48,703 nt of DNA from Flavobacteriales bacterium (GTDB taxonomy: Bacteria; Bacteroidota; Bacteroidia; Flavobacteriales; BACL11). The notes under the pieces were generated by a model. That model did no database searches. It saw only the letters and a list, made by a program, of their open reading frames with translations, and had not been told where the DNA came from. A program made the position numbers and the translations under genes. Each line of letters starts with the position of its first letter. The first letter of the stretch is position 1. Below are positions 5,879 through 34,966 of this stretch, piece after piece. The stretch lies in contig JABICI010000023.1 of the NCBI GenBank assembly GCA_018652335.1, positions 1 to 48,703 of the forward strand, written 5' to 3'.

Positions 5879-5960
5879 TGCCCAGAGCGGGAGTCGAACC
5901 CGCACATCCTAGGATACATGACCCTCAATCATGCCTGTCTACCAATTTCAGCACCTGGGC
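5879..5960 (-). tRNA. tRNA-Leu(GAG)
   Basis: Reverse complement GCCCAGGTGCTGAAATTGGTAGACAGG-CATGA-TT-GAG-GG-TCATG-...GTGCGGGTTCGACTCCCGC-TCTGGGCA, with a long variable arm. Confidence 0.95.
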
Positions 5961-5996
5961 AAAAAAGAAAAAAATCTCACTAAGTGAGATTCTTTC
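5961..5996 (-). terminator. Intrinsic terminator-like hairpin between tRNA-Lys and tRNA-Leu
   Basis: Minus strand AATCTCAC-TTA-GTGAGATT followed by TTTTTCTTTTTT. Confidence 0.7.
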
Positions 5997-6000
5997 TATG

Positions 6001-6073
6001 TGACCTGGCTGGGGCTCGAACCCAGGACCCCATCATTAAAAGTGATGTGCTCTACCAACTGAGCTACCAAGTC
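6001..6073 (-). tRNA. tRNA-Lys(TTT)
   Basis: Reverse complement GACTTGGTAGCTCAGTTGGTAGAGCA-CATCA-CT-TTT-AA-TGATG-GGGTCCTGGGTTCGAGCCCCAG-CCAGGTCA. Confidence 0.96.
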
Positions 6074-9032: not shown

Positions 9033-9380
9033 ATGAACATTACAGATACCATTGCAAATGAATTAGTACCTTCTAGAGATTTTCCATCTTTTAAGGCAGG
9101 TGACAATATAACTGTCTACTACACTATTAAAGAAGGAGATAAACAAAGAACTCAGCTTTTTAAAGGTGATGTTTTACAAACTAAAGGCACAGGTGCAACA
9201 GAAACTTTTACTGTAAGAAAAATTTCTCATTCAGTAGGTGTTGAAAGAATATTCCCATTAAACTCTCCGTTAATAGAAAAAATTGAAGTAAATAAGAAAG
9301 GTAGAGTGAGAAGGGCTAAAATTTACTACTTAAGAGAATTAACTGGTAAAAAAGCTAGAATTAAAGAAGTTAAGTCATAA
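9033..9380 (+). CDS. rplS: 50S ribosomal protein L19 (ATG at 9033 preferred over TTG at 9012)
   Basis: [55 protein letters not shown]. Confidence 0.97.
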
Positions 9381-20565: not shown

Positions 20566-21186
20566 TTATTTTAAATATATTGATTTTTGAATAGATCCAT
20601 CACTATAAATATAAAAGTATAAACTGTTATAATGAACATCTACAACTTCTCTTCCATAAAAATCAATAATCTTAGTTATTTTTCTTTTGGATTGTAACTC
20701 AACTAAAGAAGAAACTGAACAATTAGTACTAAAAACAGCTGTGTTATCAATTTGCCATGAGTAATTAGCAAGGGAGATATTATCAACTTCAACACAAAGT
20801 AAACTAGGATTATCAACTGCGGTAAAATACCAAAGTCCTGAGGGATTGCCATTTTTAACAGATAGTGATATAAGCTGATTATTACTACAATTAACTTCAA
20901 ATAAGTTACCATTACTACTTAAATCTAAACTTACAATTTGATTATCATAGCAAAAAAGTTCTGTTAAACTACTAAAATTTTCAATTCCTGTAAGATCACT
21001 AATACCCAAATCTGGAATATAAAGATAGACTACAGTATCAATGGCACTTGTAAAAACACTATCATTTAATACGTCATCAATGCCTAAATTTATTAATTCT
21101 TGTTCAAAAGCATCATCTGGAATGAAAGTGTTTTGTGTTGCTCCAACAAAAGGGAAAATTAAAATTATAAAAATTATATTTTTCAT
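20566..21186 (-). CDS. Small secreted leucine-rich-repeat protein with short T9SS-like C-terminal domain
   Basis: TFIPDDAFEQELINLG cap, ISDLTGIENF, LFCYDNQIVSLDLS LRRs, NPSLLCVEVD; tail KIIDFYGR...YIYSDGSIQK. Confidence 0.8.
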   Translation of the reverse strand: MKNIIFIILIFPFVGATQNTFIPDDAFEQELINLGIDDVLNDSVFTSAIDTVVYLYIPDLGISDLTGIENFSSLTELFCYDNQIVSLDLSSNGNLFEVNCSNNQLISLSVKNGNPSGLWYFTAVDNPSLLCVEVDNISLANYSWQIDNTAVFSTNCSVSSLVELQSKRKITKIIDFYGREVVDVHYNSLYFYIYSDGSIQKSIYLK

Positions 21187-23918
21187 TATTTCTTAATAAT
21201 TTGTTTTACAAGAGATTTTTCTCCTATAGACACATCAATAAAGTACACACCTGATTTAAATCCATTAAGAGAAAGATTAATCTGATTAACACCATTAATT
21301 ACATTAATATTTTTGTCAGCAAACATCTGTCTTCCAAGTTCATCATAAATAGTAATATTACAAGTAGAAACATTTTTTAAATCTAGCAACAAAGAAAAAT
21401 TATCAGCTACAGGATTTGGGAAAATTGTGTAATCATAATTCTTATTATTGATATTTGAGACGCTTAATATCTCCCCTATTGAATTAATATTTGTTTGATA
21501 TACACCATTTCCAAATGTTCCAACAATTAGTAAACCGTCAGACTGTCTGTATTCAATATATTCAACAATTGTAGACCCTATGGTAGAGCTTGCAACCTGC
21601 TCCCATGTAGTATTTATTCCATCAATTTTTGAAGTTGCAAATAAGCCAACTGTAGTACCGACTAAATATAGGGTGTCATCACCCAAAGGGATAATTTGAG
21701 CATCTCGACATGATGGTCCATTTCCAGATCCACTATTATTTTGTTCAAGATTCCCACCTGCTTTTTGCCAATTCTGACCACCGTCTAAACTATGCCATAA
21801 AGAATATACACTGTAATTTGAAAACACTACCATAATTTCATCAGCATTATCTGGATTTATTGCAATATCTGTACAATACGAACCACTTCCAGTTAAAATA
21901 TTTGGTAATTGAATAACATCTGGGTCACCAACACTTGCATTATCAACTCGAAATAAATATTTGTTCTGAGTTCCAACATACATAATATCTGCAGGATTAG
22001 TTGATGTAGACAATACTGATATTTTAATACTTTGTGGAGATAAAGAGTCAGAAAATAATTCCCAACCAAAATCTGATTTATCATGAGAGCCGTTGTATTG
22101 AATATTATTTAGATTATTATTTCTCCAAATTTTATTTGCTTCGGCCCAATAAATAACATTATCATTATTTGCATCCATTTCCATAGGATTCATCCACATA
22201 TAATTATTACTATCACAAGAAGCCGGATCCATTCTTTGAAATCCAAGTCTTTCTGCGTTAGTATCTAATTTCATTTTGTACATAACTCCTCTTTGAATTG
22301 TTAAATAAAAATCTTCTTCATTGTCTGCTATTCCAGCATGAGAACCATCTCCATTAAATGGCATATTCCAATTAGCATTTATATCTGGACTAAAAGTAAT
22401 TCTACTTCCATTATCTTGAAAACCTCCTTGAAGAACATCTGAATTTTCATTTTTACTTATTGCCACTGTATATAATTGAGTTGTATTATATCCATTATTT
22501 AAAGACAGCCAGTCAACAGAATCCTTGTAAATATTATTAGTTTTAAATACACCACCATCATTACCATTAATCATTATACTATCATTAGATGGAAGGTACA
22601 AAATTACATGTTGATCTGGATGATGATTTGGGTAAGAACCCCAGTTGCCATCTCCTTCAGATGACCCTGCTCTGTAACCACCAATTATTGTTGTATTTGA
22701 TGAAGTTGTAAAACCGTCTGTTGATCTCCAGAGGTTAGTACCTCCAATTATAACAAGATTACTATCTGTTGGATGCACATTAACTACAAGGTCATATGAA
22801 CCTTGAGCATTAAAATTATCAAATGAAGTATTCTGGTTAGTTGGTATGCTAGATGAAAGGTCAGTCCATTGCCCACCAGCACCTGTTCCATCTCCAGAAA
22901 TATATTCATACTTCCACAAAGAAGTCCAAGTTTCTCCACCAAAAAAGACATCTGTATGTTGACCATAACCTGTAGTCTCAGCAGCTAAGAAATATATCTG
23001 ATTTTCATTAGAAGGATTAATACCAATAACTACACGACTATACACAGGAGGAAATAGAGAATCTGCAATATTTATCCAATTTTGCCCGTCACTTGATCGC
23101 CAAATCCCATTGTCACTACAGTTACTACTAATTGTGGCATAAACTACACCCTGGCTAGTAACATTAACATCAGTGTATTGATAATAATTTGTATTAGATC
23201 CACCAAGTTGCTTTGTCCAACTTAACCCACCATCAACTGATTTGTAAATATCACCCCTTGTAGCAACATATACTACATCTAATGAATCATTGCTGAAATC
23301 TGTTTTTATACTAAATGTAAAATCAAAATCACCATCTAAAACTGTGGGAGTATTTGAAGTAGTAATTGGTAATGAGTCCCAGCTCAAACCACCGTCTATT
23401 GATTTCCAAATACCATTACCATAAATAGAAACGTCACTCAGATATGAGCCTCTATTTTCTCCAGTACCAAAATACCAGATATTTTCTTTACCATCTCTTC
23501 TATCTTGAGTTAAACATGAAATTCGATGTTCCTGACTGGGTTGAGTTGTCATTGTCCAGCTAGCTCCGGCATCAATAGAACGAAACATACCTCCTGAAGC
23601 TCCTCCTGCAAGTATAATATTCTCGTCTAAAACATCTAATGCCAAGGCTCTTGTTCTTCCGCCTACATTAAAAGGACCTCTATTTATCCAGTTTGATTTA
23701 CTAAAATTCTTAGAAATTGGAATAGTTTTTGCAAATGTCATTTCTTTCTTTCTAATATTTTTTGGGATTTCTCCAGTTGCAGGGTCAATTAATCTCATTT
23801 GTTCCCATACAATTCTTTCTGATGGATTATCAGAGGGGTAAAAAACAGATTTATTTTCTTTCTCACTAATTGAGGAAGCTATTACTAAACTTAAAATAAA
23901 GGGTAGAATTTGAAACAT
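21186..23918 (-). CDS. Secreted BNR/Asp-box (VPS10/Ycf48-like) beta-propeller protein with T9SS type A CTD
   Basis: WINRGPFNVGGRTRAL; repeated S.DGG.SW Asp-boxes; HPDQH; GNDGGV; CTD IFPNP...IYDELGR...GVYFI...KQIIKK. Confidence 0.85.
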   Translation of the reverse strand: MFQILPFILSLVIASSISEKENKSVFYPSDNPSERIVWEQMRLIDPATGEIPKNIRKKEMTFAKTIPISKNFSKSNWINRGPFNVGGRTRALALDVLDENIILAGGASGGMFRSIDAGASWTMTTQPSQEHRISCLTQDRRDGKENIWYFGTGENRGSYLSDVSIYGNGIWKSIDGGLSWDSLPITTSNTPTVLDGDFDFTFSIKTDFSNDSLDVVYVATRGDIYKSVDGGLSWTKQLGGSNTNYYQYTDVNVTSQGVVYATISSNCSDNGIWRSSDGQNWINIADSLFPPVYSRVVIGINPSNENQIYFLAAETTGYGQHTDVFFGGETWTSLWKYEYISGDGTGAGGQWTDLSSSIPTNQNTSFDNFNAQGSYDLVVNVHPTDSNLVIIGGTNLWRSTDGFTTSSNTTIIGGYRAGSSEGDGNWGSYPNHHPDQHVILYLPSNDSIMINGNDGGVFKTNNIYKDSVDWLSLNNGYNTTQLYTVAISKNENSDVLQGGFQDNGSRITFSPDINANWNMPFNGDGSHAGIADNEEDFYLTIQRGVMYKMKLDTNAERLGFQRMDPASCDSNNYMWMNPMEMDANNDNVIYWAEANKIWRNNNLNNIQYNGSHDKSDFGWELFSDSLSPQSIKISVLSTSTNPADIMYVGTQNKYLFRVDNASVGDPDVIQLPNILTGSGSYCTDIAINPDNADEIMVVFSNYSVYSLWHSLDGGQNWQKAGGNLEQNNSGSGNGPSCRDAQIIPLGDDTLYLVGTTVGLFATSKIDGINTTWEQVASSTIGSTIVEYIEYRQSDGLLIVGTFGNGVYQTNINSIGEILSVSNINNKNYDYTIFPNPVADNFSLLLDLKNVSTCNITIYDELGRQMFADKNINVINGVNQINLSLNGFKSGVYFIDVSIGEKSLVKQIIKK

Positions 23919-27405: not shown

Positions 27406-27744
27406 TTAGTAGTCATGATCTCCATGATCTTCACAATGAATTTCATATTGTGAATTAGCACTTCCTGGCCCATATTCACCTGGAAGTAGAGGAATTCCGT
27501 CGCTGGAGTATAGTGTGTCTGTAACAGTGTACACATAACTTGATGATTCTGCATCTCTTAATTCATCTTCACAAAAATCTTCTCCTCCTGATGCATTTAG
27601 AATTTCCCATTGAGTCTCTGATTTATCAGGCAGGGCAATATGACACTCGTGACAAAGCTCAGCATCATCATCTTTAGAGCAAGAAGTCATACTGCTAATT
27701 GCTAAAAATGCAACACCCATTACTAAATAATTTACTTTTTTCAT
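27406..27744 (-). CDS. Surface lipoprotein with CxxCH motif and His/Asp-rich tail (putative metal-binding TBDR partner)
   Basis: Lipobox MTSC then SKDDD (Bacteroidota lipoprotein export signal); CHECH; tail IHCEDHGDHDY. Confidence 0.8.
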   Translation of the reverse strand: MKKVNYLVMGVAFLAISSMTSCSKDDDAELCHECHIALPDKSETQWEILNASGGEDFCEDELRDAESSSYVYTVTDTLYSSDGIPLLPGEYGPGSANSQYEIHCEDHGDHDY

Positions 27745-27762
27745 TTTTATATATATTTAATT

Positions 27763-27814
27763 AATACTGACACCTTAAGAGGTGTTTCGCTTCTTTAAAG
27801 CTCATCAGAGTATT
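27763..27814 (-). ncRNA. Hammerhead ribozyme, type I; predicted cleavage after GUC (between 27769 and 27768)
   Basis: Minus strand AAUACU-CUGAUGA-GCUU-UAAAG-AAGC-GAA-ACACCU-CUUA-AGGUGU-C-AGUAUU. Stem I AAUACU/AGUAUU, stem II GCUU/AAGC and stem III ACACCU/AGGUGU are all perfect Watson-Crick, and every conserved core nucleotide is present. Confidence 0.93.
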
Positions 27815-30040
27815 TTAAAATTCATATTTTAAATTAATATTGAAAAATCTTCCAGGATTAGGTACTCCACCAGCAACTCCTCTTACTCTTGATATATGAG
27901 GTGAATATACTTCATTAAATAAGTTGTTTAAACTTAATACACAATGTAATTTATCATTAAATTTTAATCCTAGTTGTAGATTTATAACATTGTATTCTGG
28001 AGTTAAAGATTCATATTCAGCGTAACTATTTTGCTGAAATTTATAAACATGATAAATAGATATATAATCAAATTTATATTTAATAATTTTTTCATATTTA
28101 TTAAAATCAAATAAAACTTTTGTTTTAATACTATTTGCAGGCACTAGAGCCAAACCGTACACATCATCTTTATTTTTAGTATGTAAAAAAGAATAAGATT
28201 GCTCAATATGTAAATTATGTAATTGATGAGGATGATAGTGTAAATTGAATTCAACACCTTTAATTTCAACTTTTTCATATTGTGTGTAATTATACACCTT
28301 GTAACTATCTTGAATTGAGTCTGTTGGAGTTATTGAAATAAAATCAGATATATATTGTGCAAATGGATTTAAAACAATCCCTATATGTTCATTAGACCAT
28401 TGATATTTAAAATCAAACTGATTAGCATATTCAATTTTTAATTGATTATCTCCAATTTCATACCTGTTTGTACCATGATGAACACCATCTGAAAAAAGCT
28501 CAGAAAAATGCGGTGCTCTATACGCTCCAGAATATGTAAATCTTAAAATATGATCAATGAATTTATAATAAAATCCTGTAGATAGACTTGTATTAGAAAA
28601 GACTTGATCATAATTAATATTGAATTTTTCGCTCTGATCATTAACCTTCAAATTTTTATAATCGTAGCGAATACCTGAATTAAATCCAAAATCATTTTTT
28701 TCATAATCAACTATAAAATAAGGACCTACATTAAATGACGAGGCATCTGGAACTAATCTATCTATTTCATTATTCTTATTATTAAGTATTGTAATTTGAG
28801 AACCAAAATTGACAGTAATACTTCCTAAATTATATCTAACACTAGGAGATATCTGCGTATTAGATAAATCAATATCAAACGCTGGTTTAGTCCACTTTTC
28901 CCACTCTTGTAAATTATTTATAAAATGACCAACATATAAGTTAAATTTTAAGTTATTCTGAAGGAAGATAGACTCATAAATAATCAGCTGATTGTTAACT
29001 ACCTGATTAGGTCTAGATGTATCATAGTCAGTTGAGAAATCTAAAGATGATGAAGTAAGATCAATAAGATTAGACTCTTGAGGATCGCCATGAATATGGC
29101 CCGGAATTCCTGGTGCTTCGGTATGCCTATGATATCTAAAAATATTTTGCCAGTTCTTAAGCCTATGTGCTAATGAAAATTTTATAGCATTTTGTTTGAA
29201 TCTTGAATTAAACAAATACCAACTATTGGGTAAGCGATAATCTGAAGAAATTGCATACTGACCATACAAATTAAAATAAAAATTCTTTTCACCCCACTTA
29301 ATTCCAAATTGATTACTACTTAAATAGCTACTATTATTAAATTTCGTAGAAAGGAAACCTTTTATTTTTTTACTATCAACAAAAGGATGATCTTTAAAGT
29401 ATAATACACCTCCAATAGCTTCTGAGCCATACTTCAATGCACTAGAACCCTTGATCAATTCTACTTCATTTAAACCTAAATCTGTAAATCCTATACCATG
29501 ATCATTTGCCCATTGCTGATTATTTATTTGCATACCATTTAAATAAGTAACAACACGCATTCCAGATAATCCCCTAACAACTACTTTTTGTATACCTAAA
29601 CCAGATGAGATCATATCTACTCCATTTAACTGAGAAATACTCTCAACCATAGAGTTAGATTCTAAAAAATTAAGTGATTTCTTTTCAATATTTGTTAACT
29701 TACTATTTCCTAATTTATTATGGGTACTTGATATACCAACTTCATCTAAACTAACATGAAGTTTATTAAGAACAATCTCCAATGTCATATTAGATGTATA
29801 TTTAATTTTTTTGGTTGAATATCCATTCTTGTAAAAATTTATATAACTATTATTGGGAATATCGGATTCAGTGACAAACTCACCATTTCCATCACTATAC
29901 AATAGTATATTTTGATCAGATAGATATATATCAACCTGATTTATTGGTTTGTTATTATCATCTAAGATAATACCTATAGTTTGAGAATAAATTGTAAAAA
30001 CATTCATCACAATTAGTGATGAAAAAAGTAACTTTTTCAT
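27815..30040 (-). CDS. TonB-dependent receptor, probable metal uptake type
   Basis: Signal peptide, N-terminal extension, plug (VVRGLSGMRV...QQWANDHG, ELIKGSSALKYGSEAIGGV), His motifs GHIHG and ELFSDGVHHGT, terminal NPGRFFNINLKYEF. Confidence 0.92.
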   Translation of the reverse strand: MKKLLFSSLIVMNVFTIYSQTIGIILDDNNKPINQVDIYLSDQNILLYSDGNGEFVTESDIPNNSYINFYKNGYSTKKIKYTSNMTLEIVLNKLHVSLDEVGISSTHNKLGNSKLTNIEKKSLNFLESNSMVESISQLNGVDMISSGLGIQKVVVRGLSGMRVVTYLNGMQINNQQWANDHGIGFTDLGLNEVELIKGSSALKYGSEAIGGVLYFKDHPFVDSKKIKGFLSTKFNNSSYLSSNQFGIKWGEKNFYFNLYGQYAISSDYRLPNSWYLFNSRFKQNAIKFSLAHRLKNWQNIFRYHRHTEAPGIPGHIHGDPQESNLIDLTSSSLDFSTDYDTSRPNQVVNNQLIIYESIFLQNNLKFNLYVGHFINNLQEWEKWTKPAFDIDLSNTQISPSVRYNLGSITVNFGSQITILNNKNNEIDRLVPDASSFNVGPYFIVDYEKNDFGFNSGIRYDYKNLKVNDQSEKFNINYDQVFSNTSLSTGFYYKFIDHILRFTYSGAYRAPHFSELFSDGVHHGTNRYEIGDNQLKIEYANQFDFKYQWSNEHIGIVLNPFAQYISDFISITPTDSIQDSYKVYNYTQYEKVEIKGVEFNLHYHPHQLHNLHIEQSYSFLHTKNKDDVYGLALVPANSIKTKVLFDFNKYEKIIKYKFDYISIYHVYKFQQNSYAEYESLTPEYNVINLQLGLKFNDKLHCVLSLNNLFNEVYSPHISRVRGVAGGVPNPGRFFNINLKYEF

Positions 30041-30120: not shown

Positions 30121-30528
30121 CTATATTATGAAGGGGGGAGATTTATTTTGAAAGCTAGTAAAATCAGTTAAGTTTAATGAATCAAATGATTGATGCATTA
30201 CTGATGTTAAAGATTTAAAAACAAGATTTGAATATTTATCTAAAAAAGCAAATTTTACATTAGAAAAATGATCACAAATATTGCATTTTTCTAAAGTATT
30301 TGCAAGATGAGAGTCATGTGAACATTCTTTTTCAAAATTTATTTTTTGAAAAAGAGCCTCACAAAATAAAACATTTATTTCTTCATCATGATGATCACAA
30401 CAATAGTCTTGATCATTTTGATTTATTGAATGACTATGAAAAGAGAACAAAGATAATGAACCAAATAAATAAATTAAAAGTAATGTACCGCTTAAAATTC
30501 TATTATGTAAGATTATACTTTTTTTCAT
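30121..30528 (-). CDS. His/Cys-rich upstream ORF of the TBDR (CruR/DUF2946-like leader protein); start re-called to ATG at 30528 or 30531
   Basis: Basic N-terminus and hydrophobic segment, FHSHS, CCDHHD, CSHDSH, CNICDH, C-terminal NKSPPFII. Confidence 0.72.
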   Translation of the reverse strand: MKKSIILHNRILSGTLLLIYLFGSLSLFSFHSHSINQNDQDYCCDHHDEEINVLFCEALFQKINFEKECSHDSHLANTLEKCNICDHFSNVKFAFLDKYSNLVFKSLTSVMHQSFDSLNLTDFTSFQNKSPPFII

Positions 30529-30532
30529 CATG

Positions 30533-30540
30533 CAAAAATA
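30533..30540 (-). promoter_or_regulatory. -7 promoter element TATTTTTG directly before ATGATG of the upstream ORF
   Basis: Minus strand TATTTTTG-C-ATG-ATG-AAA. Confidence 0.6.
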
Positions 30541-30647
30541 TAATTCTAAATTCATATTTTCTTAAAAACTAAACTAAAATTGAAATTTATTTATTTAAAA
30601 AAATTTTCTAGTGCAATTAAGATTGCTTACTTTTAAAAAAAAAAATC

Positions 30648-32102
30648 ATGAAAAGAATTTTAACAATCTGTATTGCATTAGTATTTGCTTTATCCTCTCA
30701 TGCAACTCATTTAATGGGAGGTCAAATAACAACAACTTATATTTCTTCTGATACATCTGGCTCCCATTATTTTTTAGAATTAGATTTATATAGAGATACA
30801 TTAGGCATAAATGTTGATACGATACAAGAAATAGAAATATGGTCATTAGATGTAATGGGCAATTACAATCTATTATCAACCAATACATTAACTTTGGGTA
30901 CTTCAGGCGCACTAGCAACCATGTCATCTGCTTATGGTGTCGAAATTTATCATTTTACTGATTCAATTATATTCCCTGCTAATGGAAATTATATTGTGAA
31001 ATGGAAAAATTGTTGCAGAAATAATGCTATAATAAATATGGCTACTCCAGGATCTGAAACAATGACTCTTCTAGCATATGTTAATGTCAATAATCTATCC
31101 CCAAATTCATCTCCAACATTTCTAGCGCCACCAATTATTTATCTTCCAACTAATAATATTTGGCAATACAATCCATTACCATTTGATATAGATGGTGATT
31201 CGTTAGTATGGAATTTAACAGTTCCATTATCAGCATCAAGTAACCCTCCAATACCAGACTCAGTAACAGGTTACGAATTTCTTTCTGACACTATACTTTA
31301 TTCAAACTCTTCAGCACCTTTTGCAGTAAATAATTTTACAGGAGAAATAACTTGGAGTCCAAAAATGATAGGAAATTTTGTTGCTTCATTAACAATACAA
31401 GAATATAGGAACGGAACTCTTATTGGGGCAATGAATAGAGATATGCAATTCGTTGTTGTTGCTGATTCAACAAACTTCACTCCAATTATTTCTAATATGC
31501 AAAGTTTACCAACAAATAATCTTGGAAATCCCTACGTTAAAATTGCACCTGGACAAAACTATCAACTTCATTTACTTGCATCTGATCAAGACTTAAATGA
31601 TGTAATTAGTATGGATGCATTTGGAGAGCCTTTTAGCTTATCAAATGGGGCAAGCTTCAGTTATTCTTTGACGGGAAATAATAACGAGATAGATGGTGTT
31701 TTCTCTTGGACACCAGATATAAATCATCTTCGCGAAAATCCATATCTTGTTGTATTTAGGACAACTGATAATTTCTTTTATTTTGATGAGACTGTTCAAT
31801 TTGAAGTAACGTACAATACATCTATTAATGAGGATCAAAATAATTTATTTGTTCAAACTATTTATCCTAATCCAGCAAGAAACTCCTTTACACTACCTAT
31901 TCTAATAGAAAAAAACAATAACATTAAAATAGACATTTATAATAATCTTGGGATTAAAGTCTCTAGTAGAAACTTAGAACTAAGTGCGGGTTCACATCTG
32001 ATAGTCAATAACTTTAATCTTAATAATGGACAATATTTTGTAAATATTACAGATGAATTTGGAACTATCAAAACAACAAAGAAATTACTCATATTAAAAT
32101 AA
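30648..32102 (+). CDS. Secreted protein with THxxGGxI N-terminal domain, Ig/cadherin-like modules and T9SS type A CTD
   Basis: SHA-THLMGGQIT, LYRD, CCRN, NSSPTF, DIDGDSL, TGEITWSP, RDMQF; CTD IYPNP...IYNNLG...GQYFV...KKLLILK. Confidence 0.82.
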   Translation: MKRILTICIALVFALSSHATHLMGGQITTTYISSDTSGSHYFLELDLYRDTLGINVDTIQEIEIWSLDVMGNYNLLSTNTLTLGTSGALATMSSAYGVEIYHFTDSIIFPANGNYIVKWKNCCRNNAIINMATPGSETMTLLAYVNVNNLSPNSSPTFLAPPIIYLPTNNIWQYNPLPFDIDGDSLVWNLTVPLSASSNPPIPDSVTGYEFLSDTILYSNSSAPFAVNNFTGEITWSPKMIGNFVASLTIQEYRNGTLIGAMNRDMQFVVVADSTNFTPIISNMQSLPTNNLGNPYVKIAPGQNYQLHLLASDQDLNDVISMDAFGEPFSLSNGASFSYSLTGNNNEIDGVFSWTPDINHLRENPYLVVFRTTDNFFYFDETVQFEVTYNTSINEDQNNLFVQTIYPNPARNSFTLPILIEKNNNIKIDIYNNLGIKVSSRNLELSAGSHLIVNNFNLNNGQYFVNITDEFGTIKTTKKLLILK

Positions 32103-34745: not shown

Positions 34746-34820
34746 TCGGGGTAGCAAGATTCGAACTTGCGACCTCCTGCTCCCAAAGCAGGCGCGATAA
34801 CCGGGCTACGCTATACCCCG
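34746..34820 (-). tRNA. tRNA-Pro(TGG)
   Basis: Reverse complement CGGGGTATAGCGTAGCCCGGTTATCGCG-CCTGC-TT-TGG-GA-GCAGG-AGGTCGCAAGTTCGAATCTTGC-TACCCCGA. Own -7 element TAAATTTG at 34831-34838. Confidence 0.96.
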
Positions 34821-34879
34821 AAAAGGTTGGCAAATTTATACTTTTTTAATTCTTATGTAAAGAATTTTAAATATAATTG

Positions 34880-34966
34880 CGGAGAGGAAGGGATTCGAAC
34901 CCCCGGTACGCGTAAGCGCACAACTCCTTAGCAGGGAGCCCCGTTCGGCCACTCCGGCACCTCTCC
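34880..34966 (-). tRNA. tRNA-Ser(GCT)
   Basis: Reverse complement GGAGAGGTGCCGGAGTGGCCGAACGGG-GCTCC-CT-GCT-AA-GGAGT-...GGGGGTTCGAATCCCT-TCCTCTCCG, long variable arm. -7 element TACATTTG at 34995-35002. Confidence 0.95.

Follow-up and report, generated by a model that had tools for sequence, protein, structure and literature searches.

Within a stretch of 48,703 nucleotides (nt) from a Flavobacteriales bacterium (assembly GCA_018652335.1, contig JABICI010000023.1; the whole stretch is hereafter the window, and its positions serve as coordinates throughout), we identified a complete type I hammerhead ribozyme of 52 nt at 27763-27814 on the minus strand, lying between the genes of a TonB-dependent receptor and a small lipoprotein, both of which are encoded on the same strand. 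Comparison with related genomes indicates that the element is a real, selectively maintained and canonical hammerhead, and it is very probably catalytically active, with cleavage predicted at a single position. Our overall reading, to which we assign a probability of roughly 0.75, is that a functional hammerhead resides in the transcript of receptor and lipoprotein, where its cleavage would uncouple the two cistrons. The ribozyme class itself is already known, and what is new is the chromosomal, operon-dedicated setting.

Every core element can be read directly from the sequence, and the parts of the ribozyme are arranged as follows:

27763-27814, minus strand: type I hammerhead ribozyme, supported by its sequence, its minimum free energy (MFE) fold, a score of 82.8 bits with our covariance model R1 (described below) and covariation over 35 orthologues
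27809-27814, minus strand: 5′ strand of stem I, its first base directly following the receptor stop codon; helix I has 6 pairs
27802-27808, minus strand: core CUGAUGA (C3-A9), read from the sequence
27789-27801, minus strand: stem II and loop II, 4 bp plus a possible U-G pair
27786-27788, minus strand: core GAA (G12-A14), read from the sequence and invariant in 35 of 35 loci
27770-27785, minus strand: stem III and its 4-nt loop, 6 bp, the first pair being A15.1-U16.1
27769, minus strand: C17, with cleavage predicted between 27769 and 27768
27763-27768, minus strand: 3′ strand of stem I, which would become the 5′-OH end of the downstream mRNA
27745-27762, minus strand: A/U-rich leader, running from the end of the ribozyme to the start codon of the lipoprotein gene

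The receptor stop codon (TAA, 27817-27815) and the lipoprotein start codon (ATG, 27744-27742) enclose a spacer of 70 nt, 52 of which are occupied by the ribozyme; the lipoprotein gene starts 18 nt past the end of helix I, and the predicted cut after 27769 would leave a 24-nt leader on the 3′ product. A first-pass annotation of this DNA had proposed a complete hammerhead between the receptor and lipoprotein genes, and each of its elements is indeed found on the minus strand. The core residues C3, U4, G5, A6, N7, G8 and A9 as well as G12, A13 and A14 are all present, and the cleavage site consists of A15.1-U16.1 followed by a residue 17 other than G (here C). The topology is that of type I, with helix I open and helices II and III closed by loops, both in the MFE fold and in the RNAalifold consensus. 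The MFE fold of 27755-27825 is exactly this three-helix junction, and its energy is unremarkable for a sequence so rich in A and U (z -1.5; 18 of 200 shuffles fold equally well). A terminator scan flags helix III on the opposite strand (27769-27786, plus strand), followed by a T-rich run; this call is probably incidental, helix III being A/U-rich in most orthologues.

In the whole genome (1,565,531 bases, 30% G+C, 87.6% complete), a loose type I descriptor, asking for at least 4 bp in helix I and at least 3 bp in each of helices II and III, retrieved a single site, which is the element at 27763-27814. Among 40 random genomes produced with a second-order Markov model, two contained any match to the descriptor and one contained a match with at least 16 helix pairs. 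Since a match in a single genome could arise by chance in a scan of many windows, the matter was settled by conservation in other genomes.

Conservation and association with the lipoprotein gene

A DNA search of 40 related genomes yielded 13 loci whose alignment spans the end of the receptor gene as well as the lipoprotein gene, and the motif sits at the same place in all 13 of them. We built an alignment of 14 sequences by hand (A1), from which the covariance model R1 was derived. In A1, 99.1% of the 224 pair cells hold standard pairs and 10 of the 16 pairs show compensatory changes; its covariation score was reached by none of 500 shuffles, and sliding the 3′ partners by 1-3 columns left only 27-45% of cells paired. 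RNAalifold, run on A1 with no structure supplied, returned the same 16 pairs. A larger alignment (A3), obtained by aligning 35 loci to R1 and, being fitted to the model, leaning towards the R1 structure, has 98.4% of its 558 cells paired and changes on both sides in 11 of the 16 pairs (83 cells); again, none of 500 shuffles reached the covariation score, and the slid controls were 24-44% paired. The model-fitted outcome is matched by the independent A1 result.

Across these 35 sequences, the six column pairs with the highest mutual information all correspond to pairs of the three helices. Helix I is 98.6% paired over its 6 pairs, with both sides changed in four of them; stem II is 100% paired, with both sides changed in 2 of 4 pairs; and stem III, whose length varies from 3 to 10 bp and whose loop is free to vary, has both sides changed in 5 of 6 pairs. 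A longer stem I running through the receptor stop codon, which the first-pass annotation had suggested, shows no covariation, and the flanks, being A/U-rich, pair trivially. Residues C3, U4, G5, A6, G8, A9, G12, A13 and A14 are invariant in all 35 loci. N7, alone among hammerhead core positions in being known to accept substitutions, reads U in 33 loci and C in the other two. The A15.1-U16.1 pair is kept in 34 of 35 loci, as is C17, and both exceptions fall in a decayed second copy of the element in one genome (G014, described below); 21 loci have GUC as the cleavage triplet and 13 have AUC. Compensating helices around invariant unpaired bases are what catalysis predicts, and a plain hairpin would not show such a pattern. 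The covariation in related genomes to which the first-pass annotation had looked is thus present in all three helices, around an invariant core.

We surveyed 68 genomes of the window's family with R1 (E <= 0.01) and obtained matches in 26, of which 24 are strong (65.9-90.1 bits), the other two genomes having only matches of about 28 bits. Matches of 28-28.6 bits (in G071, G078 and G079; such numbers are our labels for genomes) lack the core and were set aside. In an even sample of 151 genomes of the order, 16 had an R1 match, distributed over four families (f1, 5/14; f2, 1/2; f8, 6/14; f9, 3/14), with no match in the other 14 families of that sample and none among 150 genomes of the class sampled outside these groups. 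Many of the surveyed genomes are incomplete, and a missing match does not prove absence. Five further records, all of them metagenome-assembled genomes or single-cell assemblies (four Flavobacteriales and one 'uncultured Bacteroidetes bacterium'), were found through the lipoprotein, and each carries the ribozyme just upstream. Overall, 35 loci distributed over four families of marine, uncultured Flavobacteriales with small genomes have the element in this spacer.

The gene order around the element is equally constant. At 33 loci that match the core, a long open reading frame (ORF) with a TonB-dependent-receptor-like end is followed by the element and then by an ORF of 91-124 amino acids (aa) encoding a lipoprotein with a C-x-E-C-H motif; at one of the 33, cut by a contig end, only the downstream gene is visible. 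In the family, the 24 genomes with a strong ribozyme match are the same 24 that carry the lipoprotein gene at E <= 1.1e-23. There is one ribozyme copy per genome in the family, the exception being G014, whose second copy (L048 1501-1566, minus strand, equivalent to G014:C3:28996-29061; 65.9 bits with R1) follows a paralogous receptor gene. Downstream of this second copy there is no lipoprotein gene; a 5-codon ORF stub and a terminator-like hairpin stand there instead, and the ribozyme itself bears lesions, namely G at position 15.1 and U at position 17, together with a loop II that is shorter and a stem I that contains a mismatch. The hammerhead thus decays where it has no downstream cistron to serve.

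The spacing of stop codon, cut and start codon is also conserved, in keeping with the emphasis that the first-pass annotation had placed on this geometry. The stop codon precedes CUGAUGA by 5-17 nt in 30 of 33 loci, which corresponds to 0-11 nt before a helix I of 6 bp; the other three loci, from genus g13, have it 39-40 nt before the core. The cut and the lipoprotein ATG are 22-27 nt apart in 33 of 34 loci (median 24, and 24 nt in the window); the 34th was scored at 1 nt through an upstream in-frame ATG and measures 25 nt when the start of its homologues is used. The leader is composed of 56% A, 36% U and 8% G+C, its sequence is not conserved, and folding predictions leave the leader of the window unstructured (-2.1 kcal/mol, z 0.0). 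Because the length of the leader is fixed while its sequence is free, these comparisons suggest that what counts is where the new 5′ end falls with respect to the start codon.

An alignment search with the lipoprotein found the gene in 39 of the 151 genomes of the order, many of which have no R1 match, and we inspected 16 lipoprotein regions of this kind. In 15, a receptor-like ORF precedes the lipoprotein gene with no hammerhead between them, the spacer being 6-21 nt in 14 cases and 58 nt in G147; in the 16th, no ORF of the same orientation lies upstream. The longer spacer of G147 (L084, G147:C42:13300-14460) folds into a hairpin and holds a stretch resembling the 3′ part of a hammerhead, and it may be the deletion remnant of one. 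Given the decayed copy in G014, the short spacers of hammerhead-less operons and the fixed 22-27-nt leader, the comparisons point to a role of the ribozyme in expressing the downstream gene. Since the operon works without it in relatives, the ribozyme would modulate expression rather than be essential to the operon.

We placed these operons on a quick, unrooted maximum-likelihood tree of the last 250 residues of the receptor (47 rows, leaving out L025, L036 and L051, for which no long upstream ORF was recovered). The 31 ribozyme-bearing rows form one group together with G147, the only ribozyme-less operon inside it. Outside this group, ribozyme-bearing G187 is sister to ribozyme-less G180, within an otherwise ribozyme-less group. 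Presence of the hammerhead requires at least two changes of state on this tree, between which gain and loss are indistinguishable without a root, and the ribozyme has thus been gained or lost more than once.

Related hammerheads between phage genes

Hammerheads of this kind are common in viral sequences. The pattern of core plus helix II matched 72 IMG/VR contigs (L093-L164). With R1 these gave 114 matches (E <= 1), with a top score of 71.3 bits and frequently more than one match to a contig, and the descriptor found 99 type I sites in 66 contigs. At 57 of these 99 sites, the stop codon of an ORF of at least 50 aa lies within 12 nt of helix I, mostly at -1, 0 or +1; at 82, an ORF starts within 40 nt; and at 52, both are seen. 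The corresponding counts for 432 random positions are 20, 115 and 5. Over 69 distinct viral sites, and going by naive ORF calls, the cut precedes the next ATG-initiated ORF by a median of 25 nt. The window element has the same layout, its stop codon standing 0 nt before helix I and its leader measuring 24 nt. A blastn search of named phages with the 64-nt element gave two short, irrelevant matches only. The contig with the best viral hammerhead (L158) also holds a DUF805b RNA (RF02914) at 9224-9258 on the plus strand, at 45 bits against a gathering score of 35.6.

Bacterial hammerheads have been described as frequently found close to integrases and next to genes in prophages, and the processing of long transcripts into mRNAs of gene length has been proposed in the same account (Perreault et al. 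2011, PMC3088659). Phage type I hammerheads share with the window element the topology, the canonical core, the stem II sequence, a stem I abutting a stop codon and a leader of about 25 nt; they differ in often occurring several to a contig with changing neighbour genes (PMC3088659), whereas the window element is chromosomal, not near phage genes, present in one copy, dedicated to one gene pair and inherited across four families. Among 18 ORFs scanned with Pfam between 16.8 and 38.4 kb, 6 of which had no match of any kind, we found no family of mobile elements or phages, and the position is syntenic in four families. The first-pass remark that no mobile element is nearby therefore holds for about 10 kb around the ribozyme, and is qualified by the abundance of this ribozyme class between phage genes. 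The window element is accordingly a chromosomal member of a group typical of phages. As to its origin, it may be the vertically inherited, chromosomal counterpart of phage units made up of a stop codon, a hammerhead, a leader of about 25 nt and a start codon.

Predicted consequences of cleavage and alternative explanations

Hammerhead cleavage leaves a 2′,3′-cyclic phosphate on the upstream product and a 5′-OH on the downstream one, and it is from this established chemistry that we infer the nature of the ends here. Once the stop codon beside stem I is freed of the ribosome, the RNA would fold and cut itself between 27769 and 27768. Because the type I cut falls near the 3′ end of the ribozyme, the receptor mRNA would retain its stop codon and the ribozyme body, and would end in a structured 3′ terminus (stems II and III) with a 2′,3′-cyclic phosphate. 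The lipoprotein mRNA would begin with a 5′-OH and the six bases of helix I, within a leader of constant length (24 nt here) that is rich in A and U and predicted to lack structure. Stem I is short and A/U-rich, so the 6-bp helix should be weak enough for the products to part readily and for the lipoprotein mRNA to be released. The two messages would then meet separate fates, that of the lipoprotein being translated from its own new 5′ end with a stability independent of the receptor message. We would give even odds that the lipoprotein message is, as a consequence of cleavage, independently and favourably expressed.

A ribosome terminating at the end of the receptor gene would occlude helix I together with some of the core. 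The conserved position of the stop codon, common also to phage hammerheads (57/99), makes it plausible that cleavage is gated by, and interplays with, translation of the receptor. Metal tuning, also raised in the first-pass annotation, is not borne out: the core is canonical, A6 is invariant (35/35) and the 70-nt spacer has no extra conserved domain. The one natural core change described as shifting the metal preference of a hammerhead, in favour of Mn2+, is A6C (PMC7151607).

Several observations weigh against the uncoupling of the two cistrons by a working ribozyme. In a 146-nt context the MFE fold lacks stem I, which is weak, with stems II and III present in all contexts folded. Over the 35 sequences, a mutual-information scan found no covarying pair beyond the three helices, whether for a loop II/stem I contact or for a pseudoknot; because no covarying tertiary contact was found, fast cleavage at cellular Mg2+ is not assured. 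Loop II invariably opens with U (35 of 35 sequences) and has A as its third base in 33 of 35, and invariant A residues flank helix I. That the two genes are co-transcribed is assumed because they share a strand and are separated by 70 nt, and a promoter within the end of the receptor gene is possible; a promoter scan gave 35 matches against 32.2 expected. The RNA data, which speak neither for nor against cleavage, comprise assembled contigs from four marine metatranscriptome runs (X1, X3, X4 and X5), whose depth cannot rank genes. Contigs cover the lipoprotein region in all four runs; among the pieces listed (14 are unlisted), none bridges 27769/27768 with 31 letters on each side and none ends exactly at the predicted cut, a contig of X4 (27613-27771) stopping 3 nt beyond the predicted end. 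Finally, 15 related operons have no ribozyme, and its role is therefore dispensable in some lineages.

Rfam also speaks against the element as far as its thresholds go. At gathering thresholds no hammerhead model matches the window, where four tRNAs are the only matches, or any of 20 orthologous loci, and eight viral loci with the same kind of element likewise have no hammerhead match at gathering score. The cmscan check suggested with the first-pass annotation was thus unsuccessful: in E-value mode, Hammerhead_HH9 (RF02275) reaches 22.3 bits against a threshold of 52 and RAGATH-1-hammerhead (RF03152) 26.1 bits against 56.3, both below threshold. The gathering score is, however, a curated cut-off and not a biochemical criterion, and these models are built on other, longer subgroups. 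At Rfam thresholds the whole group is missed, and annotations of genomes and phages probably record too few elements of this kind.

The most serious alternative is that cleavage lowers expression, the cut leaving either of the two messages, or both, open to decay. We regard such a brake as unlikely, even though the one bacterial self-cleaving ribozyme that is well understood, glmS, acts in this way (PMC6765202). The 6-21-nt spacers of hammerhead-less relatives would permit coupled translation, and the insertion of a ribozyme could then cut downstream output. RNase J, which degrades the 5′-OH glmS product in Bacillus, scored over cut-off in none of five family genomes, with RNase E/G over cut-off in all five and RNase Y in four. 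Taken together with what is known of E. coli and Bacillus, the absence of RNase J hits and the presence of RNase E/G make it more likely that the 5′-OH end protects the message here than that it condemns it, and this in turn favours uncoupling with the lipoprotein expressed from its own 5′ end. A fixed, unstructured and A/U-rich leader, moreover, resembles a feature of translation initiation, for which a doomed message would have no need. The decay of the ribozyme upon loss of the downstream gene fits either direction of the effect.

A conserved RNA structure that does not cleave itself, serving as stabilising hairpins at the receptor 3′ end, as a protein or RNase site or as a terminator on either strand, would account for the persistence of stems II and III in every folded context and for the terminator call on stem III. 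It does not account for 13 unpaired core positions that are invariant or nearly so over four families while the helices around them compensate, hairpins offering no explanation for this, nor for the fact that the sole variable core position is N7, at which hammerheads are tolerant; stem III, in addition, is A/U-rich and has no U run after it in most orthologues. We therefore consider this explanation improbable. Hardly credible, finally, is a passive remnant of a phage or mobile element, or a chance match, with no role in the host. Hammerheads of the same type are common in viral contigs and a loose match turns up in 2 of 40 random genomes of the same composition; yet 24 of 68 family genomes, and genomes of three further families, each carry the element once and in syntenic position; its helices show compensatory changes, it has no mobile-element genes within about 10 kb, and it decays only where the downstream gene has gone.

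Within the preferred reading of a ribozyme that uncouples the two cistrons, we tentatively entertain a more specific version, in which the host has adopted a phage-derived module. Its essential output, a 5′-OH end placed about 24 nt from the start codon, would let ribosomes load directly in bacteria that lack Shine-Dalgarno pairing, and, owing to the abutting stop codon, ribosomes moving along the upstream cistron would govern cleavage or product release; we put these two proposals forward jointly, and as a doubtful possibility. If they were true, intercistronic hammerheads of bacteria and phages in general would act as natural insulators that promote translation, and this would be the first defined role for a bacterial hammerhead.

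Known systems and the genes served

RiboJ-type synthetic insulators place a hammerhead before a cistron to give it a defined 5′ end independent of the upstream sequence; they are engineered, and the window element would be their natural counterpart. According to a 2019 review, glmS is the only bacterial self-cleaving ribozyme with a well-understood function, the processing of polycistronic transcripts by hammerheads having only been suggested (PMC6765202). Like the window element, glmS is a self-cleaving RNA dedicated to one bacterial gene, with a 5′-OH on the coding part (PMC6765202); it differs in its fold, in its position in a 5′ untranslated region (UTR), in its cofactor glucosamine-6-phosphate (GlcN6P) and in triggering decay, whereas the window element shows no sign of a ligand pocket and lies between two cistrons. 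A hepatitis delta virus (HDV)-like ribozyme upstream of glmM in Faecalibacterium prausnitzii is likewise small and located in a chromosomal, non-phage mRNA before a specific gene; it belongs to another class and is described from a single species, with no comparative evidence in the account given there (PMC6765202). A further parallel comes from type I hammerheads in the 5′ UTRs of fungal and plant RNA viruses, where cleavage enables translation (PMC13725137, 2026). These too stand just before an ORF, and the cut creates the 5′ end at which translation begins; they are eukaryotic and act in cap-independent translation (PMC13725137), and a similar effect in bacteria would be an extrapolation.

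Our literature search found nothing on this element and no paper linking hammerheads to TonB-dependent receptors or Flavobacteria, although the supplementary lists of surveys may hold metagenomic examples; the main text of PMC3088659 mentions none with TonB receptors or Flavobacteria, and its own supplementary lists may include such metagenomic cases. Here, a bacterial hammerhead is dedicated to a single, clearly identified pair of chromosomal genes in marine bacteria that are widespread, a rare case in which its function is experimentally addressable. Natural comparisons are already in hand, in the form of ribozyme-less operons, a copy decayed after gene loss and a fixed cut-to-start distance common with phages.

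The genes concerned are the following:

27815-30040, minus strand: TonB-dependent receptor gene, 741 aa, with the Pfam domains Plug and TonB_dep_Rec_b-barrel
27406-27744, minus strand: small lipoprotein gene, 112 aa, with no Pfam match
30121-30555, minus strand: Cys/His-rich ORF, 144 aa, on the same strand and 80 nt before the receptor gene

The receptor scores below cut-off on the haem-receptor and ZnuD NCBIfam models, and its closest solved chains are ZnuD (E 1.2e-12) and PhuR. The lipoprotein belongs to a marine family with 121 relatives, either without a name or called 'hypothetical'. The family has an invariant lipobox Cys, an invariant C-x-x-C-H motif, two further invariant Cys, an E-I-H-C motif and a His-rich tail. 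It has no Pfam or useful NCBIfam match and no solved relative by sequence, and its atlas neighbours are all 'hypothetical protein'. Its AlphaFold model is good over residues 31-105 (mean predicted local distance difference test score, pLDDT, 77.7), and a Foldseek search with this model returned 0 PDB matches at E <= 0.001. From the conserved Cys and His residues, the lipoprotein may bind metal or haem.

The 144-aa ORF has a hydrophobic N-terminal stretch and several Cys/His clusters, with no Pfam or NCBIfam match, and is kept directly upstream of the receptor gene in G021 and G081; it is probably the first gene of the operon, if, as we infer, it is co-transcribed. Together, the three genes resemble a metal or haem uptake system, which at present is a guess based on motifs; genes resembling a trace-metal or haem uptake system would lend the ribozyme additional ecological interest.

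Elsewhere in the window, the four tRNAs detected at the Rfam gathering score form two gene pairs, at 5879-6073 and 34746-34966, both on the minus strand. C-terminal sorting domains of type IX secretion (Por_Secre_tail) occur in the two large ORFs at 21186-23918 (minus strand) and 30648-32102 (plus strand), which fits a member of the Bacteroidota.

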